DNA from: Escherichia coli
GTDB taxonomy: Bacteria > Pseudomonadota > Gammaproteobacteria > Enterobacterales > Enterobacteriaceae
Reading direction: 5' to 3' (one strand)
Assembly: GCF_965641715.1 (NCBI RefSeq)
Contig: NZ_OZ282453.1
Length of the DNA: 64,000 nucleotides
This document shows, piece by piece, positions 5,906 through 25,201 of this stretch; the first letter of the stretch is position 1; every line of letters begins with the position of its first letter. A program made the translations under genes and the position numbers. Under the pieces are notes generated by a model, which searched no databases, had not been told where the DNA came from, and saw only the letters and a program-made list of their open reading frames with translations.

Positions 5906-7132
5906 ATGGGAATTAACGAAATCATCATGTACATCATGATGTTCTTTATGCTGATAGCTGCCGTAGACAGGATCCTGTCGCAGTTCGGCGGTTCTGCTCG
6001 TTTCCTCGGTAAGTTCGGTAAAAGTATCGAAGGATCAGGCGGTCAGTTCGAAGAAGGCTTTATGGCAATGGGCGCACTGGGCCTGGCGATGGTCGGTATG
6101 ACCGCGCTGGCACCGGTACTGGCTCACGTTCTCGGGCCGGTAATTATTCCGGTTTACGAAATGCTCGGCGCTAACCCATCGATGTTCGCCGGAACACTGC
6201 TGGCGTGCGATATGGGCGGCTTCTTCCTCGCCAAAGAGCTGGCGGGCGGCGACGTAGCCGCGTGGCTATACTCTGGGTTAATTCTCGGGTCGATGATGGG
6301 GCCAACGATTGTGTTTTCCATTCCGGTGGCGCTCGGCATTATCGAACCTTCTGACCGTCGTTATCTGGCGCTCGGCGTGCTGGCGGGCATTGTGACCATT
6401 CCGATTGGTTGTATCGCTGGTGGTCTGGTTGCTATGTACTCCGGTGTTCAGATCAACGGCCAGCCGGTGGAATTCACTTTCGCCCTGATCCTGATGAACA
6501 TGATCCCGGTGATCATTGTTGCGATTCTGGTGGCGCTGGGGCTGAAATTCATCCCAGAAAAAATGATCAACGGCTTCCAGATCTTCGCCAAATTCCTCGT
6601 TGCATTGATCACCCTCGGTCTTGCCGCTGCGGTAGTGAAATTCCTGCTTGGCTGGGAACTGATCCCCGGTCTGGATCCTATCTTTATGGCCCCTGGCGAT
6701 AAACCCGGTGAGGTGATGCGCGCCATTGAAGTTATCGGTTCTATCTCCTGCGTTCTGTTAGGGGCGTATCCGATGGTGCTGCTGCTGACCCGCTGGTTTG
6801 AAAAACCGCTGATGAGCGTCGGTAAAGTGCTGAATATGAACAACATCGCGGCAGCCGGCATGGTGGCAACGCTTGCCAACAACATCCCGATGTTCGGCAT
6901 GATGAAGCAGATGGATACCCGCGGCAAAGTCATCAACTGCGCCTTCGCCGTTTCCGCTGCTTTCGCCCTGGGCGACCACTTAGGCTTCGCCGCTGCCAAC
7001 ATGAATGCCATGATCTTCCCGATGATTGTCGGCAAGTTGATCGGCGGCGTAACGGCGATTGGCGTGGCGATGATGCTGGTGCCAAAAGACGACGCGACCG
7101 CGGCTAAAACCGAAGCGGAGGCACAATCGTGA
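5906..7132 (+). CDS. eutH: Ethanolamine permease EutH (408 aa)
   Basis: Polytopic membrane protein translation, expected length and position. Confidence 0.9.
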   Translation: MGINEIIMYIMMFFMLIAAVDRILSQFGGSARFLGKFGKSIEGSGGQFEEGFMAMGALGLAMVGMTALAPVLAHVLGPVIIPVYEMLGANPSMFAGTLLACDMGGFFLAKELAGGDVAAWLYSGLILGSMMGPTIVFSIPVALGIIEPSDRRYLALGVLAGIVTIPIGCIAGGLVAMYSGVQINGQPVEFTFALILMNMIPVIIVAILVALGLKFIPEKMINGFQIFAKFLVALITLGLAAAVVKFLLGWELIPGLDPIFMAPGDKPGEVMRAIEVIGSISCVLLGAYPMVLLLTRWFEKPLMSVGKVLNMNNIAAAGMVATLANNIPMFGMMKQMDTRGKVINCAFAVSAAFALGDHLGFAAANMNAMIFPMIVGKLIGGVTAIGVAMMLVPKDDATAAKTEAEAQS

Positions 7133-8532
7133 ACACTCGCCAGCTACTGAGCGTCGGTATCGATATCGGCACCACCACCACCCAGGTGATTTTCTCCCAC
7201 CTGGAACTGGTTAACCGTGCGGCGGTGTCGCAGGTGCCGCGCTACGAATTCATCAAACGCGAAATTAGCTGGCAAAGCCCGGTGTTCTTTACCCCTGTCG
7301 ATAAACAGGGTGGTTTAAAAGAAGCGGAACTGAAATCGCTGATTTTAGAGCAATATCAGGCTGCGGGCATTGCGCCGGAAAGCGTTGATTCTGGTGCCAT
7401 CATCATCACCGGTGAAAGCGCGAAAACCCGCAATGCTCGCCCGGCGGTGATGGCGCTCTCTCAGTCGCTGGGCGATTTTGTCGTCGCCAGCGCCGGGCCG
7501 CACCTCGAATCCGTGATCGCCGGTCACGGTGCCGGGGCGCAAACCCTTTCTGAACAACGGCTGTGTCGGGTACTGAATATCGACATCGGCGGTGGCACCG
7601 CGAACTACGCCCTGTTCGATGCCGGAAAAATCAGCGGCACTGCCTGCCTCAACGTCGGTGGTCGCCTGCTGGAAACCGACAGCCAGGGGCGCGTGGTTTA
7701 CGCTCATAAACCGGGGCAGATGATTGTGGATGAGTGCTTCGGCGCAGGCACCGATGCCCGTTCGCTGACCGGCGCGCAGCTGGTGCAGGTTACCCGGCGG
7801 ATGGCAGAGCTGATTGTCGAAGTGATTGACGGAACGCTTTCGCCGCTCGCGCAGGCATTAATGCAAACCGGTTTGCTGCCCGCAGGTGTTACGCCCGAAA
7901 TCATTACGCTTTCTGGCGGCGTGGGCGAATGTTATCGCCACCAGCCCGCCGACCCGTTCTGTTTTGCCGATATTGGCCCGCTTCTGGCAACGGCGCTGCA
8001 TGACCATCCGCGCCTGCGTGAGATGAACGTGCAGTTTCCGGCGCAAACCGTGCGCGCCACGGTGATTGGTGCGGGTGCACATACCCTTTCGCTCTCTGGC
8101 AGCACAATCTGGCTGGAGGGCGTACAACTGCCGCTGCGCAATTTGCCGGTGGCGATCCCAATTGATGAAACGGATCTGGTGGGTGCCTGGCAACAGGCGC
8201 TGATTCAGCTGGATCTTGATCCCAAAACTGACGCGTACGTGCTGGCGCTTCCCGCCTCGCTGCCTGTGCGTTACGCCGCGGTACTGACGGTCATCAACGC
8301 GTTGGTCGATTTCGTCGCGCGTTTTCCGAATCCGAATCCCCTGCTGGTGGTGGCCGGGCAGGACTTTGGTAAAGCTCTGGGCATGTTGTTGCGCCCACAG
8401 CTACAACAACTCCCGTTGGCAGTCATTGACGAAGTGATTGTCCGCGCGGGGGACTATATCGACATTGGTACGCCTCTTTTTGGCGGATCGGTTGTGCCGG
8501 TGACGGTGAAATCACTCGCATTTCCTTCCTGA
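7129..8532 (+). CDS. eutA: Ethanolamine ammonia-lyase reactivating factor EutA (467 aa)
   Basis: Translation recognised as EutA; 4-nt overlap with eutH stop. Confidence 0.9.
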   Translation: MNTRQLLSVGIDIGTTTTQVIFSHLELVNRAAVSQVPRYEFIKREISWQSPVFFTPVDKQGGLKEAELKSLILEQYQAAGIAPESVDSGAIIITGESAKTRNARPAVMALSQSLGDFVVASAGPHLESVIAGHGAGAQTLSEQRLCRVLNIDIGGGTANYALFDAGKISGTACLNVGGRLLETDSQGRVVYAHKPGQMIVDECFGAGTDARSLTGAQLVQVTRRMAELIVEVIDGTLSPLAQALMQTGLLPAGVTPEIITLSGGVGECYRHQPADPFCFADIGPLLATALHDHPRLREMNVQFPAQTVRATVIGAGAHTLSLSGSTIWLEGVQLPLRNLPVAIPIDETDLVGAWQQALIQLDLDPKTDAYVLALPASLPVRYAAVLTVINALVDFVARFPNPNPLLVVAGQDFGKALGMLLRPQLQQLPLAVIDEVIVRAGDYIDIGTPLFGGSVVPVTVKSLAFPS

Positions 8533-8627
8533 ATACTGTAGTTATCAGGCGTGGCGCTGGGTGGCTGGGTGTTAGTGGGATTATATCCGGCTGTGTATCC
8601 GGTCGGGGTGATTGGTCTGTATAGCAG

Positions 8628-8648
8628 AAAACCCGGCGCGGGGCCGGG
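8628..8648 (-). terminator. Intrinsic terminator-like hairpin (minus strand) downstream of the 217-aa island ORF
   Basis: aaaacccggcgcggggccggg: GC stem with T-run on minus strand; identical 21-mer recurs at 10317-10337. Confidence 0.45.
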
Positions 8649-8655
8649 TGAACTA

Positions 8656-9309
8656 TCACTCAGGGAACAAGTTGATTTGAAGCAAACTGCCAATGTATTT
8701 ACCAGTGCTTTTAATTTTTCGCTTTGATGGCTTACACGAATTCAGGTTGACACCAGCCTGGCTAGATATTGGCTTGTATTGCCGCTCCGCCAGTACGATC
8801 AGGTCTGCCGCGTCTTTTAGCTTTCCATCGTTAGCCAGTTCCAATGCTCGATCCGCCATTTGCCCGCATTGTTGAATCAGCTTAAGTTGCGATACCTCCA
8901 GTCGCAATTGCTGGATTCGTTCTACCACTTTCGCCCTAATGCGCTTAGTTTCACGCATTCCCATTCTTAATGCCTGGTTGCCAGTAAGTGAGTAAACCTC
9001 TTTTTCTTTCCTGAAGTTTGCGGCTTTACCGTCAGCTTGGACGCGCATTTTATGCGCTTCCAAGAATTCGCCCTCCAATTCATCCCTGATCTTCGCGTTG
9101 AATCTGTCGTTCTTGAGTTCATTTAACCCTTCCGCCTTGCGGATCTGGTTGATTAACTCCAACAATTCATCACTGCGGATACGCCACTCGCTATCAACCT
9201 GTACCAAGTCAAACATGTTGTTGCTCCCGTTTTGCTGCCATAGGGCAACGGCTCGCCAGCCTTTATCACCTCCTTTAGTTGTTGCGATTCTTAACTGAAT
9301 GGTTATCAA
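8656..9309 (-). CDS. Hypothetical island protein, charged/coiled-coil-rich (217 aa as ORF; likely start at internal ATG 9216, 186 aa)
   Basis: ORF translation; GGGAG-type RBS upstream of internal ATG at 9216; no domain recognised. Confidence 0.45.
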   Translation of the reverse strand: MITIQLRIATTKGGDKGWRAVALWQQNGSNNMFDLVQVDSEWRIRSDELLELINQIRKAEGLNELKNDRFNAKIRDELEGEFLEAHKMRVQADGKAANFRKEKEVYSLTGNQALRMGMRETKRIRAKVVERIQQLRLEVSQLKLIQQCGQMADRALELANDGKLKDAADLIVLAERQYKPISSQAGVNLNSCKPSKRKIKSTGKYIGSLLQINLFPE

Positions 9310-9380
9310 AACGCTGCGTTAATATCATTGATATGTATCAAATTTGTTTTGTGACGCGACAATGCCTTGTGAATATCAAT

Positions 9381-9404
9381 AAAAAACCCAGCGCTATGGC
9401 TGGG
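9381..9404 (-). terminator. Intrinsic terminator-like hairpin downstream of HTH-protein gene
   Basis: aaaaaa-CCCAGC-gctatg-GCTGGG on plus strand, i.e. hairpin followed by T6 on minus strand. Confidence 0.45.
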
Positions 9405-9437
9405 CTTCGTTTAATGAGATGGGATTGAAAGCGGGTT

Positions 9438-10220
9438 TTATTTATCTCCCAGATTGTATTCCCAGTTGGGAAGTAAAGTTATCAGCTTGTCACCTTTCTT
9501 GCCTTTGCCGATCTGGTTGCCGTTCTCGTCTTTCTTGTGTGTGATTTCCTGGTCAACCTTAATCAATCCTCTCTCTTTGGCTTGCTCAATCAGTCGGTAG
9601 AATGCGCCGTTACTAATCGGCTTCCGGTTACCGTCGTTATCCATCGCAGTGATTTTCTGTTGCAGTCCGGCGTTATTGCCCAGGTATTCGCCACCTAACG
9701 CCGCCAGTACCTGACACAACATGCCGACACTGTATTTTTTCGGATTTGGGTTAATCCATTCTTTAGCTCCCATCTCTTTTTTGTCGTTGGGCGCTTGTTC
9801 TGCTGCTACTGCGTTCACCTTTTCATCTCCCATCTTGTTACCGCTTGCTGTGCGCTTAATTTCTTCCAGTTCTCTCTCAAGCTCACCTATACGTAATTCA
9901 CGCTCGATAATTACCCCGCGCAGCACATCATCATCACCGTGAGGGCTTGCCTGAATCCAGTTACCATTGGCGAGCGGTAGGAGGGCATAAATTCCGAACA
10001 GGTCACAAAGCGCGGCAAGTGTATTAAAATCAGGTTCCCGGCGTCCCTCCATCCAGTGGCTAACAGCGCCTTTTGTGACTGGTTCGCCTTTCTTGCTTTT
10101 AACACCCATGCGATCCAGTGCGGCGGCTATCTCTTCGCATTTAATGCCACGACCGCCAGCATAGCCCGCCGCTTTCGCGGCCCCTTTGAGGATGTCGTGA
10201 ATTTTCATTTCGTAACTCAT
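9438..10220 (-). CDS. Putative HTH (XRE-like) DNA-binding protein with uncharacterised C-terminal domain (260 aa from second ATG)
   Basis: Helix-turn-helix-like segment ...EEIAAALDRMGVKSKKGEPVTKGAVSHWMEG...; GGGAGA RBS 8 nt upstream of ATG at 10220. Confidence 0.55.
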   Translation of the reverse strand: MSYEMKIHDILKGAAKAAGYAGGRGIKCEEIAAALDRMGVKSKKGEPVTKGAVSHWMEGRREPDFNTLAALCDLFGIYALLPLANGNWIQASPHGDDDVLRGVIIERELRIGELERELEEIKRTASGNKMGDEKVNAVAAEQAPNDKKEMGAKEWINPNPKKYSVGMLCQVLAALGGEYLGNNAGLQQKITAMDNDGNRKPISNGAFYRLIEQAKERGLIKVDQEITHKKDENGNQIGKGKKGDKLITLLPNWEYNLGDK

Positions 10221-10226
10221 AATTTT

Positions 10227-10257
10227 ATCTCCCATCTCATGAACTATGGTGGGAGAT
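10227..10257. promoter_or_regulatory. Inverted repeat ATCTCCCA-N15-TGGGAGAT overlapping RBS/start of the HTH gene (candidate operator)
   Basis: Arms at 10227-10234 and 10250-10257 seen directly in sequence; the left arm coincides with the RBS/first-codon sequence, so arm identity may be partly coding-driven; function inferred. Confidence 0.3.
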
Positions 10258-10316
10258 TAACACGGCGGGCCTGTGGCGGGTAAGTGTAACGGGAGAGAAT
10301 GTTGATTCAGGTCACA

Positions 10317-10337
10317 AAAACCCGGCGCGGGGCCGGG
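10317..10337 (-). terminator. Intrinsic terminator-like hairpin downstream of the 158-aa island ORF (copy 2 of 21-mer)
   Basis: Identical to 8628-8648. Confidence 0.45.
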
Positions 10338-10359
10338 CTGTGTTAGTACGTCGTTGCTC

Positions 10360-10836
10360 TTAGTTCATGAGGAGATCTTTAAATTCGACGCCGTATTCAT
10401 GGGCAATGTCGCCTCTATAGTAGATGTTATCTTTCAGGATATATCCGACGTTTCTCAGGACGTGAGAACACTCTCTTACTGCTGCCTCTTTACCCCTTAA
10501 AACATCCTCCCCGCTAACTTCTTCGCCGCTGTACTTCACTGCGATGTTGTCTGCTGCACGCTCTGCTGCTTCCAGGCAATTAATCTTCACTTTTCCCCGA
10601 TTCTCCCAGGCAAAATCGCGGCCATAAATCCCCATTGCATCAACCATCTTTTGCGCAGTAGTGCGCTCATCCACCCATTCAGTGCGTTCGAACTTCTCGC
10701 CAGCAGCTACCCTTGCCGCCAGTTGTTCGTGTTGAGTCTGTACGGCCGCAGCCTCTTCTTCCCATTTGCCTTGCTCGTTGTATACGATGAAGCCAGTGAT
10801 GACTGCAGCGATTAGTAACTTGTCCAGAAAATTCAT
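10360..10836 (-). CDS. Hypothetical membrane-anchored protein (158 aa, N-terminal hydrophobic helix)
   Basis: ORF translation MNFLDKLLIAAVITGFIVY...; strong AGGAGGA RBS upstream of ATG. Confidence 0.5.
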   Translation of the reverse strand: MNFLDKLLIAAVITGFIVYNEQGKWEEEAAAVQTQHEQLAARVAAGEKFERTEWVDERTTAQKMVDAMGIYGRDFAWENRGKVKINCLEAAERAADNIAVKYSGEEVSGEDVLRGKEAAVRECSHVLRNVGYILKDNIYYRGDIAHEYGVEFKDLLMN

Positions 10837-11089
10837 AGCTTCCTCCTATCTGTTCAATTACCCGGCATCTCTTGCCGTTGAACGTATTAAACAAAATGCC
10901 AGTCAGGGATAAAGCGATCTGCGTCATAAAGTCCATCCCCCATCTCATTGATATTGATGGGAGATTGTTTAATTGGTCAGAAATTAAGCGTTTATGTGCG
11001 CTGCCGGGTATCCACCTCCTATCTGAAGATGGAAAGATGGGTGATATAATGTGATGGCAATTGGTGGATTGCGTGGTTTTTACAATGAT

Positions 11090-11120
11090 AAGGGGCTGGC
11101 GTAATGCTGGCCCCTTTGTT
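11090..11120 (+). terminator. Plus-strand-specific hairpin plus T-run (candidate terminator of a short plus-strand transcript)
   Basis: aggggctggc-gtaat-gctggcccc-tttgttt; stem needs G-U wobble pairs so folds only as plus-strand RNA. Confidence 0.3.
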
Positions 11121-11356
11121 TATCCGGTATCCGGTATCCGGTATAAGCGGGCGTGTATCCGGTAGCGGGGATATGGGCGCGTGTACGTGAAATCTGGCAA
11201 ATTAGCAGGGTAATTGTGAGGGAATTTTTGCGTAGGAGCGTTTGTGGCTGGTAGCTCAAAATTGAGCTTTGCTTTTCATTCAATGACTTAGGTTAATTCT
11301 AGCAAAACGCTAGGATTGAATGTCCGCCAGTCTGCTTCCCCTAGCGTGGGATTTGG

Positions 11357-13723
11357 TCAACGTCTGCGCGGCTGCAAAATTCCTCCGGGTCGTTGTGATT
11401 CACGCTGCATCAGTCGCATCGCTGTGTTTTCTATGGTCTGCTGCAGCGCTTTTGAGTCTTCCTCTGTCCAGCCGTTGTTAGCCTGGATGTTGAACGTATT
11501 GTTCATCGTGATTCCGCCACCGCCTACCAGATCGCGGCCCGGTGTAACTCGTCCACCTTCACCCGGGATCATGTACTGTTTCCCGCCAGTGGATGTAAAT
11601 AGCTCCGGTACTCCGTGCTCCCCGACCCTATAAAGATTGCCACCGTTAACAGCCCCGCCGTTGTAACGAGCGCCAGCCAGTCCAAGCGTTTTGGCGGCAG
11701 CTACGCCAGTAGTAAGCCCGGTAAGTCCAGTGGCCCCAGCGCCGCCCATCGTGGCTACGTTAGCCAGGTATGCAGGAGTGGCCCACGCCGATCCTAATGC
11801 TGTAGCCTCTGCTAGTGCTTTAGCTGTTGCGGCTGCGTTTGCGGCTTCACCAATTAGCTGCTGTTTAACCCACTCAGCACCCATCTGGACAATGCCACCG
11901 ACCACAGAAGACAGGATCGTACTGCCAACGTTGGCAAGTGACTCTTGCAGCGATTGAGTACCGTTTATCAGTCCGGTAAATGCGCTGCCAGCGCCAGACG
12001 ATAACCCATCGACCATATTCCCGATGAGGCCATTTATATCGCTTTGTTTCTTCCACTGCTGCCACTGGAGATCCAGAACCCTTTGTTCATGTGCGATCTC
12101 TTCCTGGCGCAACTGCTCTTCGGTAGCCCCAAGATCTAGAAGCATTTGCTTGCGAACAGCCCATTCATTTTGGATCTTCTGTATTGGGTCAATCTGAGCT
12201 TTCTGCTTATCCTGCTCACTGACAAGACTGTCCCATTTCGCTTTCTGCTTGCGGATGGCTTCAGCTTCATCAATTGCTGCGAGTGTACTTGCTCGCTGTT
12301 TCGCGCTGATCAACCGTTTCTGCTCAGCCGCTTCCAGGTCTTCTACTGCTTTTTTCCGTTTATTGAGCGCCGCTAGTTCGGGATCGTATTTTTCCACCAA
12401 TGAAAGGCCGCTTGCTTCCTTACGTTCGCGTTCTCTTTGTGCCTGTTTGGCTGCCTGCTTAGCGGCGTTTTCTGCTTGTTTGGCTGCTCTTTCTTTCGCC
12501 CTGGTGTTCTCTTCTTCCTTGCGCTTATTCTCTTCTAACTCCTTGTTTTGTTCGCGTAATTTAACGATTTCCTCATGATGCGCCTTTGTCAGCTGGCCTT
12601 CTTTCAGTGCCCGATCTATATCAGCGTTTGCGTTGCCTTTTAGCTGTTCCTGTTTAACTTGCAGATGTTTAATCATCATTTCGCCAGTGGCAATCGCTGC
12701 CGCAGACGCTCCAGCATTCAGAGCTTCATTTAACGCTCTCTGACGTTCTTCTGCTGTTAATGCCTCGTTGCTGTATCGAAGTAGCGCATCAACGTATTTC
12801 TCCAGTTCTGCGCGGCCTGCCGCAGTTGCTGGTTCCATTGCTTTTAGGATGCTCAGAAGGCTTTGCGCTTCATAGGAAGACGGGTTTTTGCGGAACTGCG
12901 CCATAGCGTTATAAAGCGCCATAGCTTCACCCTCTGTGATTCTGTACTTAGCTCCCAGCCCTTCAATGACCGCTGATAACTGTTTGCCAAGCGCTGCACC
13001 GAATGCGCCTTCCTTGCTTAATTTGTTGAGCACTTCACTCAGTGAATTTCCTGACACGCCCAGCGCGTCGAGTTCTCTTGCTACCGTTCCCAGGTCGCCG
13101 CCTTTCATCCATCCTGCATTAGAAAATTCAGTGATAGCCCGGCCCGCTTCCCGCGTTTCTTCCTGGAGTGTTTTTAGCGCCCGCACGGCCTGCTCTTTCA
13201 TTACGGCGGCGGCAATGGCGTTGTTCTGTGTGGCTTCGTAATATGAATCACTGAAAGCGTTAACGCCCTGGGTGGATTTGCCGATCACGGCGTCGATTGA
13301 TGCTAATGCCTCCTTCATCCTTTCAGCGCTATCCGTTGCGTCGTCCATGCTGTCCGTTAGGCTGTTGGCAATCGCCCCGCCAATAGCCATCACCGCCCCC
13401 ATGACCGCACCGCCAGTACCGAAGGCAGCGGCAAGTTGTGCACCCTGCACAGCGAACGCCTGGAGCGCATTACCGCCCATCTGCAATTGAGTGGCAAGGT
13501 CTGCGATCTGGTATGATGCGTTACGGATTGCCGGGGAAAGGTTGGTTTTGACTGCGGCAGACGTTTTGGTCATCTGCGTGTTCAGTTTTTTGACGCCACT
13601 GTCAGCGCGTTTTGCGCCGCGTTCTATACTGTCAAAAGCCTGGTCCGCTTCTTGTTGTGCTGCCAGGAGTTTACCAGTACGGGCGTCGACCTCATAGTAT
13701 ATGGTCCCAAGATTCCCACTCAT
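11357..13723 (-). CDS. Phage tail tape-measure-like protein (788 aa)
   Basis: Long Ala/Gly/Gln-rich coiled-coil protein; C-terminal motif ...GGNLYRVGEHGVPELFTSTGGKQYMIPG... resembles the conserved C-terminal block of siphovirus tape-measure proteins. Confidence 0.6.
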   Translation of the reverse strand: MSGNLGTIYYEVDARTGKLLAAQQEADQAFDSIERGAKRADSGVKKLNTQMTKTSAAVKTNLSPAIRNASYQIADLATQLQMGGNALQAFAVQGAQLAAAFGTGGAVMGAVMAIGGAIANSLTDSMDDATDSAERMKEALASIDAVIGKSTQGVNAFSDSYYEATQNNAIAAAVMKEQAVRALKTLQEETREAGRAITEFSNAGWMKGGDLGTVARELDALGVSGNSLSEVLNKLSKEGAFGAALGKQLSAVIEGLGAKYRITEGEAMALYNAMAQFRKNPSSYEAQSLLSILKAMEPATAAGRAELEKYVDALLRYSNEALTAEERQRALNEALNAGASAAAIATGEMMIKHLQVKQEQLKGNANADIDRALKEGQLTKAHHEEIVKLREQNKELEENKRKEEENTRAKERAAKQAENAAKQAAKQAQRERERKEASGLSLVEKYDPELAALNKRKKAVEDLEAAEQKRLISAKQRASTLAAIDEAEAIRKQKAKWDSLVSEQDKQKAQIDPIQKIQNEWAVRKQMLLDLGATEEQLRQEEIAHEQRVLDLQWQQWKKQSDINGLIGNMVDGLSSGAGSAFTGLINGTQSLQESLANVGSTILSSVVGGIVQMGAEWVKQQLIGEAANAAATAKALAEATALGSAWATPAYLANVATMGGAGATGLTGLTTGVAAAKTLGLAGARYNGGAVNGGNLYRVGEHGVPELFTSTGGKQYMIPGEGGRVTPGRDLVGGGGITMNNTFNIQANNGWTEEDSKALQQTIENTAMRLMQRESQRPGGILQPRRR

Positions 13724-14012
13724 AATATCTTTATCCGCGTTGTGCGGACACCTCCGATTATTCTTTACTCTAATAATTTCACAATGAAACAGTTTATTGC
13801 CGCTTCAGTGGCTTCGTGTTCCGGTTTGCTTCGATCAATCACAAAAAATACAGCTTAATAGAATCAATGGCTTATAAAGTTGTATTAGCTATGTTTCTTC
13901 GTCCGTGCCACTGAAAACCCAGTTTTTCCAATGGAATCAATACTGATATGTATCCATACTGTTTTTCACATAATGTACGTTATGCGCACTACGGGAAACG
14001 TACTGAATTTAT

Positions 14013-14243
14013 TTACTGGTCGCCGTTCAGTTCATGCAGAGTCTGTTCTGGCAATGAATCCAGCCAGTTTTCTGCATCCTCCCTGTAACACTCCAGGATG
14101 CAACGGTTTGTGAAGTTGATGAAAGCGGTCAGTGATTCTGCTTCGTCGTTCCTGTGCGTTCTCCTGGCGTGCTTGCGTAGTCGTTTCGCGTCTGCCAGTT
14201 GGTCATTGAGTATCTTCAGTCTGTCGGCAATATCATCGTTCAT
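14013..14243 (-). CDS. Hypothetical small island protein (76 aa)
   Basis: ORF with GAGGGAGAG RBS upstream of ATG. Confidence 0.4.
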   Translation of the reverse strand: MNDDIADRLKILNDQLADAKRLRKHARRTHRNDEAESLTAFINFTNRCILECYREDAENWLDSLPEQTLHELNGDQ

Positions 14244-14378
14244 GTCGTCTCTCCCTCGCGCGCGCGTCGTACTTGTCCGAAAATTACCCCCATAAAAGCG
14301 CCCCTCATATAGTGCAAAATCCCGGCTGACGCGGATCTCAGTGGGTTTTAGCAGTGAAAACTGACATCAAAAACGGCT

Positions 14379-14426
14379 CGCTAAGGTCCGCTAAGTATCC
14401 GCTATCGTTCGCTAACCCCCCGCTAA
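14379..14426. repeat. Five direct CGCTAA/CGCTAT hexamers phased at 10-11 bp (candidate protein-binding array)
   Basis: Copies at 14379, 14389, 14400, 14410, 14421; one helical turn apart; intergenic. Confidence 0.5.
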
Positions 14427-14430
14427 CCTA

Positions 14431-14796
14431 TTAGATATCGCATCCAACGCTATTGAGCTGGCTATGTATATCGGCGCGAATTAACTTCAGGCGTTTACAA
14501 AATTCGCGTTCTTCCGAATTAAGCTCGCGGCCACCTTGTTTCGAGGCAATGAGCTTGTTGATGGTGGAAAGCGAATATTCACTCCATATACGAAGCATTT
14601 GTCGCTTCATTGGTTGCTCGCTCAATGGTGAGTTTTTCAGGTCTGACACGCGCTCTGCGACGGTTCTTGCGATGCCTTGTACCACTCGTAGTGCCAACAT
14701 GATGATTTTCTCCGGACTTGTGCTAATATAGTTCCCGAACATTGTTTCGAGACTGCTTATCCTGTTTGTCTTGTCCGATTTGTTCATTGGTCGCAT
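14431..14796 (-). CDS. Hypothetical island protein (121 aa)
   Basis: ORF only; weak RBS, so lower confidence. Confidence 0.35.
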   Translation of the reverse strand: MRPMNKSDKTNRISSLETMFGNYISTSPEKIIMLALRVVQGIARTVAERVSDLKNSPLSEQPMKRQMLRIWSEYSLSTINKLIASKQGGRELNSEEREFCKRLKLIRADIHSQLNSVGCDI

Positions 14797-14838
14797 TGTT
14801 AAGTCAGCCGGGGTAATTCCCGGCTTTCTTTTATCCGA

Positions 14839-15381
14839 TCAGTACCGAATCCCTATCGCATTGAATACGCGTTTCCGTTGCTCAGCTTCAGGATCGGCGG
14901 CCATTTCTGGTTCTGGCTCCGGCATAGACGGGGCGGCATCAAAATGCTCAATTTCACGACCGAAATACGAGTTCAGGTCAATACCTGCCGAACTATCCAC
15001 TCCATCAAAATAGCGACGCTGTTCCTCGGTGAGACAGCTACCCAGACGTTCCTCAACCTGCGCCATAAACTCAGCATCCGGTGAGAAGTACTCATCCGGA
15101 GTCGGAGCACCGCTCTGTTTGTGCATCTCCATTTTCTCTGCGTTCGTTTTCAGCCCGGCAATGCGTTTCTCCAGTCCGGCGGCTTTAATAGCGTCAGCAA
15201 CGATTTGTGGGATCTGCGGTTTAATTATTTCGATAACTTCATTGCTGATTAATTTAAACTGGGCCATACGGATCGCTTTAATCTGCTTATTTAACAGTGC
15301 GCGTTCCCCTTCGTTGGCGGTTTTATCACGCTGTGCTACCAGTTCATCGCCTTTGTTTGTCAGTACATCAAATGCGTCCAT
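14839..15381 (-). CDS. Hypothetical island protein (180 aa, acidic C-terminus)
   Basis: ORF with strong GGAGGAGG RBS. Confidence 0.5.
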   Translation of the reverse strand: MDAFDVLTNKGDELVAQRDKTANEGERALLNKQIKAIRMAQFKLISNEVIEIIKPQIPQIVADAIKAAGLEKRIAGLKTNAEKMEMHKQSGAPTPDEYFSPDAEFMAQVEERLGSCLTEEQRRYFDGVDSSAGIDLNSYFGREIEHFDAAPSMPEPEPEMAADPEAEQRKRVFNAIGIRY

Positions 15382-15398
15382 TGTCTTTCCTCCTCCGA

Positions 15399-15725
15399 TT
15401 ATTTAAAAGTGCTTATTGACACGCCGAAACGACGACTTAATTCAAAAAGGAGTCGCGCCTTTGCAGTGCCTTCCATGTCTTCCGGCATTTCAGACTGAAG
15501 TTTATCAGCTACTTCATCAACAAGTGGCCGAACCGTTTCCACGAACTTGTCCGCAATATAATCAGCAGAACGCATCACTTTTTCCTGGAATTCCTCACGG
15601 CGTACCTGGGCGGCTGATTTAGGGGCTGTCGTGCGCTGAAAATAACTGTCTAATGAATGCATGGCATCTGCTCCTTTTACTTTGATTGCTGTTATTTCTT
15701 TAATTGTGTTTGCTTTGATTTTCAT
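15399..15725 (-). CDS. Hypothetical island protein (108 aa)
   Basis: ORF with AAGGA RBS; tightly packed after upstream gene. Confidence 0.5.
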   Translation of the reverse strand: MKIKANTIKEITAIKVKGADAMHSLDSYFQRTTAPKSAAQVRREEFQEKVMRSADYIADKFVETVRPLVDEVADKLQSEMPEDMEGTAKARLLFELSRRFGVSISTFK

Positions 15726-15801
15726 GCTGCCTATTCCTTCAGAAATTGCGGTAGTTTGCTTTTTAAATCAATAAGTTATTTGATAATCTCAGTAGCTGTT
15801 T

Positions 15802-15993
15802 TCATTGGTGGCGAGCGCCTTTGTTTTTATAGAATTCCAAAATCTCAGATCGGATAAACTTAATTCTTGAGCCAATCGGACTGACCGGGACGGGCCAGCC
15901 TTTAATCTTGTTCATCCACCGGAATATTGTCCGACGGGTAACGCCGAATAAAGCTGCTACCTCGTTAACCGTCATTAATTCGCTATCATTCAT
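15802..15993 (-). CDS. AlpA/excisionase-family small HTH regulator (63 aa)
   Basis: Translation ...MTVNEVAALFGVTRRTIFRWMNK... matches AlpA-type prophage regulators; typical partner of P4-type integrases. Confidence 0.6.
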   Translation of the reverse strand: MNDSELMTVNEVAALFGVTRRTIFRWMNKIKGWPVPVSPIGSRIKFIRSEILEFYKNKGARHQ

Positions 15994-16280
15994 GTTCTCA
16001 CCTCAAAAAGTAGCGGTGAGGAAAATATGGAGAAAACCCTCACCGCGCCCTGAATGAAATTAAAGACCAACATTACTGTTGATACTTATTATTATATTCC
16101 TCCTGTCCCTGTTTCACATCTTTTACCATATAGTGAAAGGGGATATTCTGTAATGTTTACAAAACTTTTAATTAGCAAAAAATAATTGCGCATCTCACGT
16201 AATGCAGGGATAATATTACTCAAGGGCTGGTTGCCCTTACTCAAAATGTGATCTATAACTACAACGATCTATTTCACTTC

Positions 16281-16307
16281 CCCGCTTTCTCCGGCGGGAT
16301 TTTTTTG
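16281..16307 (+). terminator. Plus-strand intrinsic terminator-like hairpin within 600-bp noncoding stretch
   Basis: cccgc-tttctccg-gcggg followed by a ttttttt. Confidence 0.4.
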
Positions 16308-17122
16308 CCTGCAATCTGGCACCATTGCGCACATTAAAATTAGATGCCATTTAAAAGCGATATAACGCGTTCTGCCGGGCTTAATTTTGGCTATCCACTT
16401 GGAAGGGTAAGCCTGTTTTGATTCGTCTGGCGTGGAATGGTGCGGCGGTAATATCAGATCTCAGCGTTCTGCGTGGTGGGATGAAATAGCCTGGCAGGAT
16501 TTGCGTGTGGTTTGCTCTCCCAAAAAATGGGGTAATGGCGCTGGCTGGATGGCAGGACTCCGCGCTGATTACTGGATGGCTGAAAATTTAATGAAATCGC
16601 ATCAATTTTAATGCGTCTAAATCGCTCTGTGGCGACGTGAAGTTTTCAGGTAAGCAAGTGTAGCTGTGTGGTGTGTTCATCGCGTTACTGGCACCATTCC
16701 GTTCGAATTTGGCGCTATCAGGATGGTTTGCGGTGGTCGGCGGCGGGGATAAACTTGCTTGAGTGGTCACCTCAGCCTGCTGTGCGTCGTGTGATGGTAC
16801 TGTCTGCACCTGGCTATACGCTGCTTTGCTGCTGTTTCCTGTCTGGTCTGTATACGCGATAAAACCCATCGGCTTTACAGTGAGTGAGTTTTTTGCGCTT
16901 TGCTTTCCATTCGGTTTGCTTACTGCTGCTGTGTGTCTGTGCGGTAGCTCAGAAAGCTGTCGATGATAACCATCACTGCCAGACCGTCTTTTGAGCTGGC
17001 GATTGCTCGAAGTCTTCCGAAGGTCCGCTGGGCTTGTTGCTTGTTTGTGTTCTTTTAAAATGCGCGCCTCTTACTTTCTCTTAAAAAGAAAAAAGGAATA
17101 TACAGATCTCATACTATGTGTG

Positions 17123-17273
17123 TCCCAAATGTCACACGTCATGGCCTGACCTGTATCCCAAATGTCACACGTCACCCTCTGACCTGTATCCCAAATGTCA
17201 CACGTACCTGTGTCCCAAATGTCACACGTCTATTGTTAATTAATTGTTGACCTGTGTCTCAAATGTCACACGT
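17123..17273. repeat. Iteron array: five direct copies of TCCCAAATGTCACACGT (fifth TCTCAAATGTCACACGT)
   Basis: Copies start 17123, 17156, 17189, 17213, 17257; AT-rich block tattgttaattaattgttga between copies 4 and 5. Confidence 0.65.
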
Positions 17274-17338
17274 CTGTTGATGGTTTAAGTAATAAAAAGG
17301 GCCACCATTTTAGGTGACCCATTGATGCGTTTTAGTCG

Positions 17339-18103
17339 TTATCTTGCGTTCTCGACCTGAAAAAGCATTCTGTATTTTCTTGCGTGCTGACCAATAACAT
17401 ATTCCCCGTATGGCTCAATGAGTCCTAACTCAACCAGGATTTTCATCTGGCGAATTACGGTGCGGCGATTCATGCCCCATTCATCAGCTATTTTTGCCTG
17501 GCAAACTTCAGATACATAAGATCCATCATTCTGCTTTCTTGCTGCTGATGCAATGCTGGATAATACGCTCCAGGCTGTAGCTTTAGCTTTATTCTCGCAA
17601 CCACTTCTGACAAATGCCTTACGTGCCGCACCCAAACAGACATAACTGCAATAAATTCCTTTTTCTTCCGTTTGGTATTGTGTCTCTTTATCCTGCATGG
17701 CTTCCGGTTCTTCCGGCGCTTCCTGCTGTGGTGCTGTCTGCGAAGTTTTAGCGGCCATACTGCGTAGCTCGTTCACGATATCAGTAGCTGATTTCTTCTC
17801 GCTTTTAGTTTCCTGCGTGACTGATAAATACTCACCTTGTAACGCCAGGAAGTCAGCGCGGGCGTTTGCCTGGCTTTGTTCTGGTGATTCAGGTTCTGCA
17901 TCGGCAGGTGATGAAATCGGTGATACACGCGCCCAGCCTGTTTTGGCGTTGCATTCCCAGCGATAACCATTAAAGCGGATATCATTCAGGCCATCATCAA
18001 TGGCGCTCCGTACTTCTTCCGGGATCGCGTCGATTTTCTGAAGGCTGTGTTTACCGAGTGATTCGCCTTGCCGTGGGGCGTAGGCGGTTGGTAAAATATT
18101 CAT
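17339..18103 (-). CDS. Putative winged-HTH DNA-binding protein, candidate replication initiator or regulator (254 aa)
   Basis: C-terminal HTH-like segment ...GMNRRTVIRQMKILVELGLIE...; perfect AAGGAGA RBS; iterons immediately 3' of gene. Confidence 0.5.
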   Translation of the reverse strand: MNILPTAYAPRQGESLGKHSLQKIDAIPEEVRSAIDDGLNDIRFNGYRWECNAKTGWARVSPISSPADAEPESPEQSQANARADFLALQGEYLSVTQETKSEKKSATDIVNELRSMAAKTSQTAPQQEAPEEPEAMQDKETQYQTEEKGIYCSYVCLGAARKAFVRSGCENKAKATAWSVLSSIASAARKQNDGSYVSEVCQAKIADEWGMNRRTVIRQMKILVELGLIEPYGEYVIGQHARKYRMLFQVENAR

Positions 18104-18349
18104 GTGGGATTTCTCCTTTTTACTTGTTTCCCATATCGCCCGGATTGGTTAGCGGCCTTCCGGGCTTTTTGTTGCGTTGATCCTATTTTCGATCCCCGGA
18201 TTTTTTATTACAAACTTGGCTTAATCATTGATTTTATTGGTATAGCTGTATAAAAGGATAACAGGATAAAAGGGTGATAGATTGTGTAACCTGTTAACCT
18301 TTTATACCAGTAAGGCGAAAGAAAAGCCGGACGAATCCGGCCTTATAGT

Positions 18350-19555
18350 TCACGGCTCCAGCGGATTACCGCCACCAGCCAATATCTGGTCGATGGCGTC
18401 GCTGTAGTCCTGCATCATGGCCCGCCGTTGCTTCAGATAGGCCGCCTGGTTATAAACGCCGCGCACACCTTTCGGAACGTGGGCCAGTTGGATTTCGATC
18501 CAGTCTGGTGAGTATCTGCCGTACTCGTTAAGTGCGGTTGAAAAGGTGGTTCGCCAGCCGTGACCAGTGGCTATCGACTTGTATCCGATACGCTCCAGGG
18601 CTTTAAGGATGGCACTGGCTGAAAGTGGCTTATCCATGAATCGACCAGGGAACACAAAAGCACTGTATCCGCTGCGGGTAAACTGGTCCTGTAATAGCTC
18701 GACCGCCTGCCGGGATAGCGGGACCACATGCGGGCGGCGGGCCTTCATGACTTCAGCGGGTAGGGTGATGGTTGCCGATTCCAGATCTACCCACTCCCAG
18801 CGCATTAAACGCAGTTCTGCGGTCCTTAGGGCGCTTAATATAAGCAAACGTATTGCCGTCTGAATCTGAACGCTCCCGGCTCTCTCAAGGGCTTTGTAGA
18901 AGGCCGGGATTTCGTTAATTTGTATCCATGCGTTATGGCCTGGGCGTCGGGCTTTCAATGCCGTGTCCAGATCTGCAACCGGATTTCGGTTAACCAGTTC
19001 AGTGATAACGGCAAATTTGAAGATTTCCCCTATACGCTGCCGTAATTTTCGGGCCTGTTCCGGCGCGGTGCGCTCTTTCTTCTGAAGCAATGCCAGCACG
19101 TCACGGGCCGTTATATCGACAATCGACCGCTTGCCAAGTACCGGATAAACATCTTTCTCCAGTGCCGATCTAACTTGTTTCGTGTAAGACTCAGACCAAC
19201 CGCTCACTCTGGTAGCAAACCAGTCTTCCGCTACCGTCTTAAAACTTGCCGCCATGTTGAGCGCATCAATGGCTTTCTCCTTGCGCGCTTCTTCCATTGG
19301 GTCAATTCCCTGGGCGATGAGTAAACGGCTCTCTGTGGCGCGTTTACGTGCTTCCTTCAAGGTAATCAGCGGATATACCCCAATAGCCTGTAACCGCTCT
19401 TTCTTGTCTATCCAGTACCGGAATCGCCAGTATTTGCTGCCATTGGGATGTACCAGCAAGAACAGGCCAGGTGTCTGTGAATCGGTGAGTTTGTAGGGCT
19501 TGTCCTTCGGCTGGGCGGCCTCTATGCCCTTTGCTGTCAGTGGTGTCTTGCTCAA
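18350..19555 (-). CDS. Tyrosine-type site-specific integrase, P4-like family (401 aa, TTG start)
   Basis: Translation ...GLFLLVHPNGSKYWRFRYWIDKKERLQAIGVYP... typical N-terminal arm-binding region of P4-type integrases; located at island edge. Confidence 0.85.
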   Translation of the reverse strand: MSKTPLTAKGIEAAQPKDKPYKLTDSQTPGLFLLVHPNGSKYWRFRYWIDKKERLQAIGVYPLITLKEARKRATESRLLIAQGIDPMEEARKEKAIDALNMAASFKTVAEDWFATRVSGWSESYTKQVRSALEKDVYPVLGKRSIVDITARDVLALLQKKERTAPEQARKLRQRIGEIFKFAVITELVNRNPVADLDTALKARRPGHNAWIQINEIPAFYKALERAGSVQIQTAIRLLILSALRTAELRLMRWEWVDLESATITLPAEVMKARRPHVVPLSRQAVELLQDQFTRSGYSAFVFPGRFMDKPLSASAILKALERIGYKSIATGHGWRTTFSTALNEYGRYSPDWIEIQLAHVPKGVRGVYNQAAYLKQRRAMMQDYSDAIDQILAGGGNPLEP

Positions 19556-19743
19556 AACCGGATACCTCGATCTAACGACTCGATAACCCCGCTCATGTAT
19601 CCGTCGCGTTCGGTTGCGTTCGGCAGGATAAGTAACGGGCGTATTAAGTGGAACACCTTACAGGACAAGGGATAACGATGAAATAGAATTGTTCGAATGC
19701 TGTGAAAAATGTTACTCATCACTTCTTCCTGAGGGAACGACTT

Positions 19744-21105
19744 ATGAAACTAAAGACCACATTGTTCGGCAATGTATATCAGTTTAAGGATGTAAAAGAG
19801 GTGCTGGCTAAAGCCAACGAACTGCGTTCGGGGGATGTGCTGGCGGGCGTCGCAGCGGCAAGCTCACAGGAGCGCGTGGCGGCAAAGCAGGTGTTGTCGG
19901 AAATGACCGTAGCGGACATCCGCAATAATCCGGTGATTGCCTATGAAGATGACTGCGTGACGCGGCTGATTCAGGACGATGTTAACGAAACGGCCTACAA
20001 CCAGATTAAAAACTGGAGCATCAGCGAACTGCGTGAGTATGTGCTGAGCGATGAAACCAGCGTGGACGACATTGCCTTTACCCGCAAAGGGCTGACCTCG
20101 GAAGTGGTCGCGGCGGTAGCGAAGATTTGCTCCAACGCGGACCTGATCTACGGCGCGAAGAAAATGCCGGTAATCAAAAAGGCCAATACCACCATCGGTA
20201 TTCCGGGCACCTTTAGCGCCCGTTTGCAGCCAAATGACACCCGTGACGACGTGCAAAGTATCGCCGCGCAAATCTACGAAGGGCTTTCCTTCGGGGTGGG
20301 CGATGCGGTGATCGGCGTCAACCCGGTAACTGACGATGTGGAAAACTTAAGCCGCGTGCTGGATACCATTTATGGCGTGATCGACAAATTCAACATCCCA
20401 ACTCAGGGCTGCGTACTGGCGCACGTCACCACCCAGATCGAAGCGATTCGTCGCGGCGCGCCTGGCGGACTGATTTTCCAGAGTATCTGTGGCAGCGAAA
20501 AAGGGCTGAAAGAGTTTGGCGTGGAACTGGCGATGCTCGACGAAGCGCGCGCAGTGGGCGCAGAGTTCAACCGTATCGCCGGGGAAAACTGCCTCTACTT
20601 CGAAACCGGACAAGGCTCTGCGCTATCCGCTGGCGCTAACTTCGGCGCTGACCAGGTGACGATGGAAGCACGTAACTATGGGCTGGCGCGTCATTACGAT
20701 CCGTTTATCGTCAACACCGTGGTCGGTTTTATTGGGCCGGAGTATCTCTACAACGACCGCCAGATTATCCGTGCTGGCTTAGAAGATCACTTTATGGGCA
20801 AGCTGAGCGGCATCTCTATGGGCTGTGACTGCTGTTACACCAACCACGCTGACGCTGACCAGAACCTCAACGAAAACCTGATGATCCTGCTCGCCACCGC
20901 AGGCTGCAACTACATCATGGGGATGCCGTTGGGCGATGACATCATGCTCAACTACCAGACCACCGCCTTCCACGACACTGCCACTGTGCGTCAGTTACTC
21001 AACCTGCGCCCGTCACCGGAGTTTGAACGCTGGCTGGAAAGCATGGGCATTATGGCAAACGGTCGCCTGACCAAACGGGCGGGCGATCCGTCACTGTTCT
21101 TCTGA
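19744..21105 (+). CDS. eutB: Ethanolamine ammonia-lyase large subunit EutB (453 aa)
   Basis: Translation recognised; start at ATG 19744 (MKLKTTLFG...). Confidence 0.9.
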   Translation: MKLKTTLFGNVYQFKDVKEVLAKANELRSGDVLAGVAAASSQERVAAKQVLSEMTVADIRNNPVIAYEDDCVTRLIQDDVNETAYNQIKNWSISELREYVLSDETSVDDIAFTRKGLTSEVVAAVAKICSNADLIYGAKKMPVIKKANTTIGIPGTFSARLQPNDTRDDVQSIAAQIYEGLSFGVGDAVIGVNPVTDDVENLSRVLDTIYGVIDKFNIPTQGCVLAHVTTQIEAIRRGAPGGLIFQSICGSEKGLKEFGVELAMLDEARAVGAEFNRIAGENCLYFETGQGSALSAGANFGADQVTMEARNYGLARHYDPFIVNTVVGFIGPEYLYNDRQIIRAGLEDHFMGKLSGISMGCDCCYTNHADADQNLNENLMILLATAGCNYIMGMPLGDDIMLNYQTTAFHDTATVRQLLNLRPSPEFERWLESMGIMANGRLTKRAGDPSLFF

Positions 21106-22694: not shown

Positions 22695-23195
22695 ATGATC
22701 AATGCACTGGGATTGCTGGAAGTGGACGGCATGGTCGCTGCGATAGATGCAGCGGATGCCATGCTCAAAGCAGCTAACGTTCGTCTGCTCAGTCACGAAG
22801 TGCTTGACCCTGGTCGCTTAACGCTGGTGGTGGAAGGCGATCTGGCGGCGTGTCGTGCTGCGCTGGACGCAGGTTGTGCTGCCGCGATGCGTACCGGGCG
22901 TGTCATCAGCCGTAAGGAGATCGGTCGGCCAGACGATGACACCCAGTGGCTGGTTACTGGCTTTAACCGCCAGCCGAAGCAACCCGTAAAGGAACCCGAC
23001 GCGCCAGTTATCGTCGTGGAATCTGCTGACGAGTTGTTGGCGCTGTTAACATCAGTACGTCAGGGAATGACGGCAGGAGAAGTGGCTGCCCACTTTGGCT
23101 GGCCGCTGGAAAAAGCCAGAAATGCGCTCGAACAGCTCTTTTCTGCCGGGACGTTACGTAAACGCAGTAGTCGTTACCGTCTCAAGCCCCATTAA
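22695..23195 (+). CDS. eutK: Microcompartment shell protein EutK (166 aa)
   Basis: BMC domain plus C-terminal extension; GGAGG RBS before ATG 22695. Confidence 0.88.
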   Translation: MINALGLLEVDGMVAAIDAADAMLKAANVRLLSHEVLDPGRLTLVVEGDLAACRAALDAGCAAAMRTGRVISRKEIGRPDDDTQWLVTGFNRQPKQPVKEPDAPVIVVESADELLALLTSVRQGMTAGEVAAHFGWPLEKARNALEQLFSAGTLRKRSSRYRLKPH

Positions 23196-23240
23196 CCTGT
23201 CGGAGGTGCCGGGTGTCCTACAACACCCGGCATTAACATC

Positions 23241-24293: not shown

Positions 24294-24298
24294 GGGAG

Positions 24299-25201
<903 letters not shown>

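Follow-up and report, generated by a model that had tools for sequence, protein, structure and literature searches.

A 64-kb stretch of Escherichia coli DNA (contig NZ_OZ282453.1; this whole stretch is hereafter the window) carries an 11.2-kb island between eutA and eutB, in the operon for ethanolamine utilization (eut), at the position where K-12 carries the cryptic prophage CPZ-55. Our reading, to which we assign a probability of roughly 55%, is that the family of CPZ-55 and its integrase IntZ consists of helper-dependent, tape-measure-bearing phage-satellite-like elements and not of decaying prophages. The island itself is classed only as working like a satellite, and it falls outside the definitions of phage-inducible chromosomal islands (PICIs), capsid-forming PICIs (cf-PICIs), P4-like elements and PICI-like elements (PLEs). 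The comparison set comprised 5,426 complete E. coli genomes.

8533-19724, - strand: island body of 11,192 bp (11,200 bp with one copy of the 8-bp core), delimited by reconstruction of the empty site and by G+C content, with no genome holding at least 80% of it

The evidence that carries this reading begins with the tail tape-measure gene.

11357-13723, - strand: intact tail tape-measure gene, 788 amino acids (aa), phrog_1538 with E 8e-112

Residues 1-774 of the product align to residues 1-799 of 811 in phrog_1538, which is the full length, and the open reading frame (ORF; 2.2-2.4 kb, 726-791 aa) is intact in all nine tape-measure-bearing islands compared. The ratio of nonsynonymous to synonymous substitution rates (dN/dS) was 0.08-0.19 at dS of 0.24-2, and 0.08-0.12 for the pairs alignable over nearly their full length; these values are biased downward by the filtering of the aligned blocks at a minimum of 60% aa identity, and some of the divergence may have arisen in phages before transfer to the islands. 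Read with these limits, the values indicate that the gene is under purifying selection. This bears directly on the strongest alternative, in which the island is an ordinary cryptic prophage remnant and a full-size phage at eutA/eutB was cut down by deletions that left the integrase, the regulators and the tape-measure gene by accident, with only residual IntZ activity. Such a remnant is the standard annotation of CPZ-55 (PMC6379469), and the phage structural gene, the anti-repressor-like and cI-like genes and the phage-type terminators of the island agree with it; however, neutral decay would not keep the tape-measure ORF intact in nine diverged variants at a dN/dS of about 0.1.

The tape-measure gene is mosaic among the islands and with phage genes. 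The closest phage proteins are those of the mEpimmI group (mEp013, mEp021, mEp515, mEp010, mEp044 and mEp554), with 55-60% aa identity over the ends and up to 82% in the C-terminal segment, and the lengths are similar (726-791 aa in islands versus 735-781 aa in phages). In mEp013 and mEp021 (loci L005 and L006), blocks of small reverse-strand genes stand on both sides of the tape-measure gene, which would make it a separate unit in the tail region of the mEpimmI phages and may make exchange with islands easy. Satellite-encoded tape-measure proteins were first reported in 2025, in Vibrio PLEs and in a mycobacterial system, the latter a satellite class with a tape-measure gene reported late in that year. 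In the Vibrio PLEs the satellite protein is selectively incorporated, giving tails ~10 nm shorter and immunity to a tail-targeting inhibitor, and predicted tape-measure (tmp) genes were noted in other satellites too (PMC11838301).

The second line of evidence is the architecture of the family. The eut islands share a collinear backbone of an integrase gene (int), a replication module (Rep/ori), a helix-turn-helix (HTH) or HNH gene, the genes F4, F3 and F1, then F5 or a small-terminase-like (TerS-like) gene with yffP, the tape-measure gene and a variable left end; the family clustering covered eight islands. Nine islands with both junctions measured 6,790, 10,303, 10,427, 10,553, 11,200 and 11,414 bp, 12.2 kb, 12.3 kb and 14,815 bp, and the end-to-end spans in a spread sample of the 488 carrier genomes were 4.5-12.3 kb, with about 40% of the sampled carriers being K-12 laboratory derivatives. 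No prophage-sized element was found at the eut site among the nine junction-defined islands and the spread sample of carriers. A range of 6.8-14.8 kb, with most islands at 10-11 kb and a collinear backbone throughout, argues against a remnant, which in turn gains from the several variants that carry insertion sequence (IS) elements, pseudogenes and deletions into intZ and eutB.

Packaging-type and tail genes recur in this family. YffO is a small-terminase homologue (E 5.5e-13), several island variants carry an HNH endonuclease, and one variant has a tail-completion/Neck1 gene (E 1.7e-12) whose DNA is 75-78% identical to mEp013_81 / mEp021_59; from the K-12 and YJ6 types the tape-measure gene has been lost. 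In no genome among the 5,426 was 80% or more of the window island present. Strain 2018-18.25PC matches it at 99% identity over 9264-11675 and strain USDA-ARS-USMARC-49610 at 98.5% over 13577-19493; for the N-terminal half of the tape-measure gene the similarity is to the islands of E47 and 20AR0354. By these alignments the island is a new mosaic, its left part being of the 2018-18.25PC type, the N-terminal half of its tape-measure gene of the E47/20AR0354 type and its right half of the USMARC-49610 type.

Several other variants were observed at the site. In a common 10.3-kb variant, represented by locus L010 (strain YJ6, NZ_AP023235.1; 1557-5410) and found in many similar genomes, the tape-measure region is replaced by IS1, a glutamate-racemase-like (murI-like) gene, a GadC-like antiporter gene and a truncated decarboxylase, which is cargo of the acid-resistance type. 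Locus L002 (NZ_AP023286.1; 7538-10045) contains an AIPR (abortive-infection) protein with a neighboring gene, and locus L009 (O157:H7 PV15-279) contains a YafO-family toxin pair at 19893-20742. In L009 eutB is also cut by IS1203 (22824-24310) and eutQ has an internal stop, and in locus L001 (NZ_CP104123.1; 12203-14123) a deletion joins a truncated intZ to a truncated eutB.

The third line of evidence lies in the right half of the island, where an integrase and a replicon-like module are found together with a small HTH gene.

18350-19555, - strand: IntZ tyrosine integrase, 401 aa (phrog_1, E 2e-66; 92% aa identity to K-12 IntZ; intZ annotated in homologous loci)
18248-18307: inverted repeat, arms of 21 nt, in the interval from int to the Rep-like gene, from a repeat search; operator-like or Int arm-site region
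17339-18103, - strand: 254-aa HTH_36 protein, putative replication initiator (Pfam HTH_36, 5e-4; weak PHROG replication-initiation matches)
17299-17320: terminator after the HTH_36 gene
17119-17273: five 21-bp iterons TGTRTCYCAAATGTCACACGT, putative replication origin (5 found, 0 expected)
15802-15993, - strand: 63-aa excisionase/AlpA-type HTH protein (Pfam HTH_17, 1.5e-6; TIGR01764, 4.9e-5, below its cut-off; PADLOC mad1, 3.8e-10)

The best match of IntZ in any sequenced phage has 43% identity, so the integrase is unknown in sequenced phages, a point against the remnant account. In the species-representative genomes of GTDB only relatives of 31-40% identity in unrelated bacteria were found, a result that, as the method detects close relatives only, amounts to IntZ being not common outside E. 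coli. Between strains intZ differs by 10-17% at the DNA level (83-90% identical), while the eutA/eutB flanks are 99-100% identical, and a gene so much more diverged than its flanks points to repeated independent acquisitions of diverged variants at the same site, which again speaks against a remnant.

The five iterons are spaced by 33, 33, 24 and 44 bp, and an A+T-rich stretch (17233-17250) is flanked by them. Elsewhere the 21-bp repeats occur only in L001 and L010, both of which have the same HTH_36 gene. In K-12 and in strain 2018-18.25PC (L002), yffL stands in place of the HTH_36 gene and is followed at once by 3-4 copies of a different 23-bp iteron; in the CPZ-55 of K-12 there are four such repeats (GGTGGGTCAAAAGTTGCCG) directly after yffL. 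YffL has weak replication-initiator / DnaD-like matches and, its array being analogous to the iterons of the window, this uncharacterized protein is perhaps a replication initiator. The two pairs, HTH_36 with its iterons and yffL with its own, would thus be exchangeable Rep-ori modules, and a Rep-plus-iteron module in each island, exchangeable between variants, counts against a remnant.

The inverted repeat at 18248-18307 has arms that are 90% complementary around an 18-nt spacer, a 16-bp direct repeat is also present there, and beside it a terminator lies between the IntZ and HTH_36 genes. The 1.1 kb from the iterons to the small HTH gene (15994-17118) contains no intact gene in any frame; related islands have a different winged-helix gene or frameshifted ORFs in this stretch, and an Rfam scan of the island, including 15994-17118, gave no RNA family. 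The small HTH protein matches the HTH_17 / excisionase type and not the Phage_AlpA family.

The fourth line of evidence, which also names a candidate helper, is a short site at the left end.

9035-9061, + strand: 27-bp dyad-symmetric element GCTTGGACGCGCATTTTATGCGCTTCC, candidate cos/pac or other site, identical to a sequence that precedes terS in phages of the mEp021 group

This element forms a 10-bp stem with one mismatch. It occurs in four of the 50,697 INPHARED records, all of them mEpimmI phages, and in three IMG/VR contigs of 54-70 kb; in the loci examined (mEp013, mEp021 and the three IMG/VR contigs) it lies ~130-190 bp upstream of terS. The flanks of the island and phage copies are unrelated, the island copy standing inside an anti-repressor-like ORF, and the chance of a 27-mer being shared between 37 kb and 11 kb is ~5e-8. 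The island of strain E47 has the element at the same distance from attL, and a partial match to the phage site was found in only 2-3 complete E. coli genomes. The element may accordingly be a mimicked packaging (cos/pac) site or a site of another kind. In the phage regions compared (~17 kb onward), no homologue of any other island gene was found. The mEpimmI phages integrate at ydaM, abgT or mppA and not at eut (PMC11893012), so that the only related phage group has other integrases and other sites than a remnant would require (PMC11893012). A remnant of an mEpimmI prophage in particular was considered and rejected, as the island lies at eutA/eutB and the integrases of sequenced phages reach at most 43% identity to IntZ.

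Mobilization of the island would, we infer, proceed as follows. On induction of a helper of the mEpimmI type, or on infection by one, the island would be excised by IntZ with the small HTH protein and would then replicate from the iteron origin. The helper terminase could package it through the mimicked 27-bp site, and other variants might use their own TerS-like and HNH genes instead. The island would supply its own tape-measure protein, resulting in chimeric tails by analogy with the Vibrio PLEs. Because the island and phage proteins are of similar length, an escape from injection blocks or exclusion, or competition, seems likelier than a change of tail length, speculative as this is. In its most specific form the proposal is that the CPZ-55 family represents unrecognized enterobacterial satellites of mEp021-group (mEpimmI) and related siphophages, which excise by IntZ, replicate by the Rep/iteron module, are packaged by site mimicry or by TerS-like/HNH proteins, replace the helper tape-measure protein in chimeric tails (which could, for instance, get them past injection blocks or exclusion directed at the helper protein) and keep the ethanolamine catabolism of the host switched off; this fuller version is put forward tentatively, as a real possibility that falls somewhat short of even odds. 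Literature searches found, within the searchable papers, no link of CPZ-55, eutB or yff genes to satellites.

Several points weigh against the satellite reading, beyond the limits on dN/dS given above. No experiment ties any eut island to a helper phage. The attP junction of the excised form would span ...CACTTCTTCCTGA|ATACTGTAG..., and strict and degenerate patterns for it had no match in IMG/VR and JGI metagenome contigs; the lack of an excised form in these public contigs is also what a remnant would predict. A search for IntZ in IMG/VR viral contigs found no relative. The Rep assignment depends on weak HTH matches and the iterons, and no primase or helicase domain was detected among the island proteins. 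In the phages the 27-bp site is a candidate cos/pac, their actual cos/pac not being mapped in the paper that describes them (PMC11893012), and the left-end type with this site is present in only 13 of the 5,426 complete genomes, for which reason other variants must use other means, such as TerS-like and HNH genes carried by themselves. Adjoining the tape-measure gene no tail assembly chaperone was recognized, the upstream genes having no family match, and the core orphan proteins have no informative family or fold match. Finally, decay is clearly under way in part of the family, many variants having IS elements or cargo or having undergone deletions. Taken with the evidence on its two sides, the ordinary remnant is an unlikely account that nevertheless keeps some standing.

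An improbable account, but one with points in its favor, is an integrative defense or interference island whose tape-measure homologue, TerS-like, HNH and orphan proteins poison the virion assembly of mEp021-like siphophages, the island itself not being packaged. Variants with AIPR/Abi protein and YafO toxin cargo are in keeping with it, as are the tail-assembly interference described in satellites and prophages (PMC11364771; PLE11 Rta, PMC11838301), the conserved ends and variable middle of the tape-measure protein relative to the phage proteins, as for a competitor that still docks into the tail, and a 158-aa protein whose N-terminal hydrophobic helix could act in exclusion. However, PADLOC matched no island protein except the small HTH, a full-length and length-conserved tape-measure protein looks functional and not like a truncated decoy, and the integrase, the replicon and the 27-bp phage site suit mobilization better than pure defense. 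Interference and satellite transfer are, moreover, not exclusive, and PLEs do both (PMC11838301).

The junctions define how the island, whatever its way of life, came to stand in the operon.

7129-8532, + strand: eutA, from the ORF list and annotated as eutA in homologous loci
8525-8532: attL core CTTCCTGA, the same in K-12 and in each of the ten further islands examined
19725-19732: attR core CTTCCTGA, from the sequence and by comparison with K-12 and other islands
19744-21105, + strand: eutB, intact, with the island between it and the operon promoter; annotated as eutB in homologous loci

The TGA stop codon of eutA is at 8530-8532 and the ATG start codon of eutB at 19744-19746. An empty site of 800 bp was reconstructed in silico by joining 8133-8532 to 19733-20132, and at least 80% of its length was matched in 4,965 of the 5,426 complete genomes, the listed empty sites aligning to the join as a single ungapped piece with identity up to 99.8%. 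Since the join matches uninterrupted genomes, the insert is exactly 11,200 bp including one core copy; eutA is kept intact because the att core ends in the three bases of its stop codon, and the 11 bp that naturally separate eutA from eutB remain on the eutB side. The core is embedded in a longer catttccttcctga / cacttcttcctga at the two junctions. As an 8-mer CTTCCTGA is not rare by itself (6 copies in the window versus 1.65 expected), and its weight is in its position, not its rarity, the chance of an 8-bp match at both junctions being ~4^-8. The attL and attR sequences of the window are identical in CPZ-55 and in seven other islands. The G+C content is 45-53% in the island and 56-59% in the eut flanks, and the credible island ORFs are all on the - strand, antisense to eut.

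A sequence-only reading of the window had placed an 11.2-kb island at the eutA/eutB junction, with a perfect 8-bp direct repeat at 8525-8532 and 19725-19732 inside a longer imperfect repeat, an integrase at the eutB-proximal end and all island genes antisense to eut. Its coordinates were all right, the empty-site join giving 11,200 bp, and the sequence bears out the repeat, the integrase (18350-19555) and the orientation. The alignment to genomes with an uninterrupted eutA-eutB junction that it had called for was run, the junctions carry the repeat core, and attL and attR are now defined. Its proposal of site-specific integration at the eutA 3' end likewise agrees with the attL/attR/attB comparison and with the lack of a transposase and of terminal inverted repeats. 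The junctions argue that integration is by tyrosine-recombinase site-specific recombination at the 8-bp core overlapping the eutA stop codon. A transposon-like insertion, in which the 8-bp repeat would be a transposase target-site duplication and not an att core, has in its favor the perfect flanking repeat and a figure legend that speaks of 'transposon-like integration ... causing duplication of 8 bp' (PMC6379469), but it is scarcely credible and was rejected, given the tyrosine integrase at one end, the precise excision of CPZ-55 (PMC3105296), the missing transposase and terminal inverted repeats, and the presence of all examined variants, 10-17% diverged, at the same nucleotide and core, which means site-specific recombination and not transposition.

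Much about the site had been described before. An earlier paper reports the 8-bp duplication, written there as TCAGGAAG, together with a prevalence of ~8% (PMC6379469), the eut site has been named a prophage insertion hot spot with a 'novel prophage' there in a uropathogenic strain (PMC6652756), and excision of CPZ-55 in K-12 occurs in <1e-5 per cell (PMC3105296). Site, 8-bp duplication and eutB polarity are thus on record for CPZ-55, and the island is an additional member of a known family.

The remaining genes of the island lie between the small HTH gene and the tape-measure gene and at the left end.

15399-15725, - strand: family core gene F4, 108 aa, in six of the eight islands clustered; no family match
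14839-15381, - strand: family core gene F3, in six of the eight islands clustered; the 180-aa product has long helices, and its C-terminal region is acidic
14431-14796, - strand: family core gene F1, product probably ~89-97 aa (14431-14700), in seven of the eight islands clustered
14013-14243, - strand: family F5, 76-aa orphan directly upstream of the tape-measure gene, in five of the eight islands clustered; no family match
10360-10836, - strand: YffR-like protein (34% aa) of 158 aa that begins with a hydrophobic helix; nothing in PHROG, Pfam, NCBIfam or PADLOC matched it
10315-10337, - strand: intrinsic terminator GCCCGGCCCCGCGCCGGGTTTTT; its 23 bp recur unchanged in mEp013 and mEp021, in the terminator annotated just before the holin gene
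9438-10235, - strand: YffS-like protein with an N-terminal cI/Cro-type HTH (66% aa to K-12 YffS; weak HTH_31 / HTH_3 Pfam matches; PHROG transcriptional regulator families)
8656-9309, - strand: anti-repressor-like gene of the left end (matches at E 1e-5 to 2e-4 in the PHROG anti-repressor families)

Searches with the orphan proteins of 108, 180, 121, 76 and 158 aa gave nothing useful in Pfam, PHROG, NCBIfam, PADLOC and PDB sequence searches. Apart from one partial entry in Salmonella, homologues of F3 are nearly confined to E. coli and Shigella, and its AlphaFold model consists of long helices at low confidence (predicted template modeling score, pTM, 0.33). Homologues of F1 are found only in E. 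coli; its model is a three-helix bundle (predicted local distance difference test score, pLDDT, 88) with generic matches at E above 0.06 in BFVD and PDB, and a role of F1 as tail assembly chaperone was considered and is unsupported by these generic fold matches. The anti-repressor-like gene probably starts at a downstream ATG, giving ~186 aa, the length of the homologue in locus L007. Two copies of one G+C-rich hairpin (CCCGGCCCCGCGCCGGG, then T's) are found in the island, at 10315-10337 and at 8631-8649.

The position of the island has a direct bearing on the host. On its + strand there are terminator-like hairpins, and 11.2 kb of antisense genes separate eutBCLK from the operon promoter; given this antisense position between eutA and eutB and the several terminators, the most likely effect is that eutBCLK is cut off from this promoter, as has been demonstrated in K-12 with CPZ-55. 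In BW25113, which carries CPZ-55, ethanolamine induces eutS and eutR and not eutB, no microcompartments are formed and the strain does not grow on ethanolamine (PMC7617246). Polarity, which had been suggested from the sequence as a possibility for eutBCLK, is thereby established in the literature for CPZ-55 at eutB. A weak sigma-70-like site (19662-19689, + strand; AGGACA, 16 nt, TAGAAT; 9/12, a consensus match only) points into eutB ~55 bp upstream of its ATG and could drive ethanolamine-independent transcription of eutB from the island.

Islands of this family are carried by ~9% of the complete E. coli genomes (488 carriers), and roughly 40% of the carriers, judged from the sample, are K-12 laboratory derivatives. 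The carriers have most likely lost the use of ethanolamine, which has been linked to fitness in the gut and the urinary tract. Since excision would restore the operon precisely, the island could be a reversible switch. If the satellite reading is right, the textbook 'cryptic prophage' of K-12 would be one of a family of small elements that is still alive and has its own replicon and a conserved tape-measure gene, certain variants adding genes for packaging or tail completion; and as the candidate helper grows on K-12, this E. coli family would be testable by standard genetics.

Among the closest known elements is CPZ-55. The earlier reading had described it at this position as shorter and without a tape-measure gene, and both points hold, the K-12 element having 6,790 bp (6.8 kb versus 11.2 kb in the window), no tape-measure gene, the same core and homologous island ends. 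The two elements have in common the attB, the 8-bp core, the ends, the antisense orientation and the order of a Rep-like gene followed by iterons. In content the overlap is limited to IntZ (92% aa), to proteins like YffS (66%) and YffR (34%), and to a portion of YffM. The island has a different Rep/iteron module and a different small HTH gene, lacks yffL, yffN, yffO (TerS-like), yffP and yffQ, and has what CPZ-55 lacks, namely the 788-aa tape-measure gene, F3, F4 and F5, and an anti-repressor-like left end with the 27-bp site. Compared with K-12 b2442-b2450, its proteins are not identical in content and order, and it is therefore not simply the known element. Of the description as a 'different or less decayed variant', the first half stands, whereas 'less decayed' presupposes a decaying prophage and the evidence favors a family of small, self-contained elements that resemble satellites. 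Other eut islands (ATCC 8739, O157:H7 PV15-279, 2018-18.25PC, USDA-ARS-USMARC-49610 and others) use the same att site and have the same backbone, with segments 98-99% identical to parts of the window island.

The mEpimmI coliphages (mEp021, mEp013, mEp515 and mEp044) have in common with the island tape-measure segments of 55-82% aa identity, the 27-bp element and one terminator, and with one island variant the tail-completion gene; unlike the island, they are complete phages of 53-55 kb with other integrases and sites (PMC11893012).

Gram-negative PICIs such as EcCICFT073 and P4-like satellites resemble the island in a size of 10-15 kb, an integrase at one end, co-directional genes and accessory genes at the far end. 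The small excisionase/AlpA-type HTH protein and the putative iteron replicon of the island may correspond to theirs. Their packaging is redirected by a cos mimic or a TerS-like protein, as is proposed for the island family. The pri-rep of PICIs comes with an iteron origin, whereas the iterons of the island lie beside an HTH_36 protein with no primase/helicase (pri-rep) domain detected. PICIs are without phage structural or lysis genes, unlike the island with its full-length tape-measure gene, and their reported sites are elsewhere, whereas the island family integrates inside an operon. Searches of the island proteins in PHROG, Pfam and NCBIfam gave no match to Phage_AlpA, Psu, Sid, Delta, Rpp or capsid-related families, nor to the P4 set of Psu, Delta, Sid, alpha primase and Epsilon, and by PHROG the window island has none of the capsid-forming PICI genes (major capsid, portal, protease, head-tail connector).

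The Vibrio PLEs have no sequence relationship to the island, and they differ from it in their host, in a myovirus helper and in a serine-type integrase system; a tail assembly chaperone gene lies beside their tmp, and none was recognized in the island. The likeness is that of small integrative elements with their own tape-measure protein, which in the PLEs replaces that of the helper in chimeric tails (PMC11838301), as is proposed for the island.

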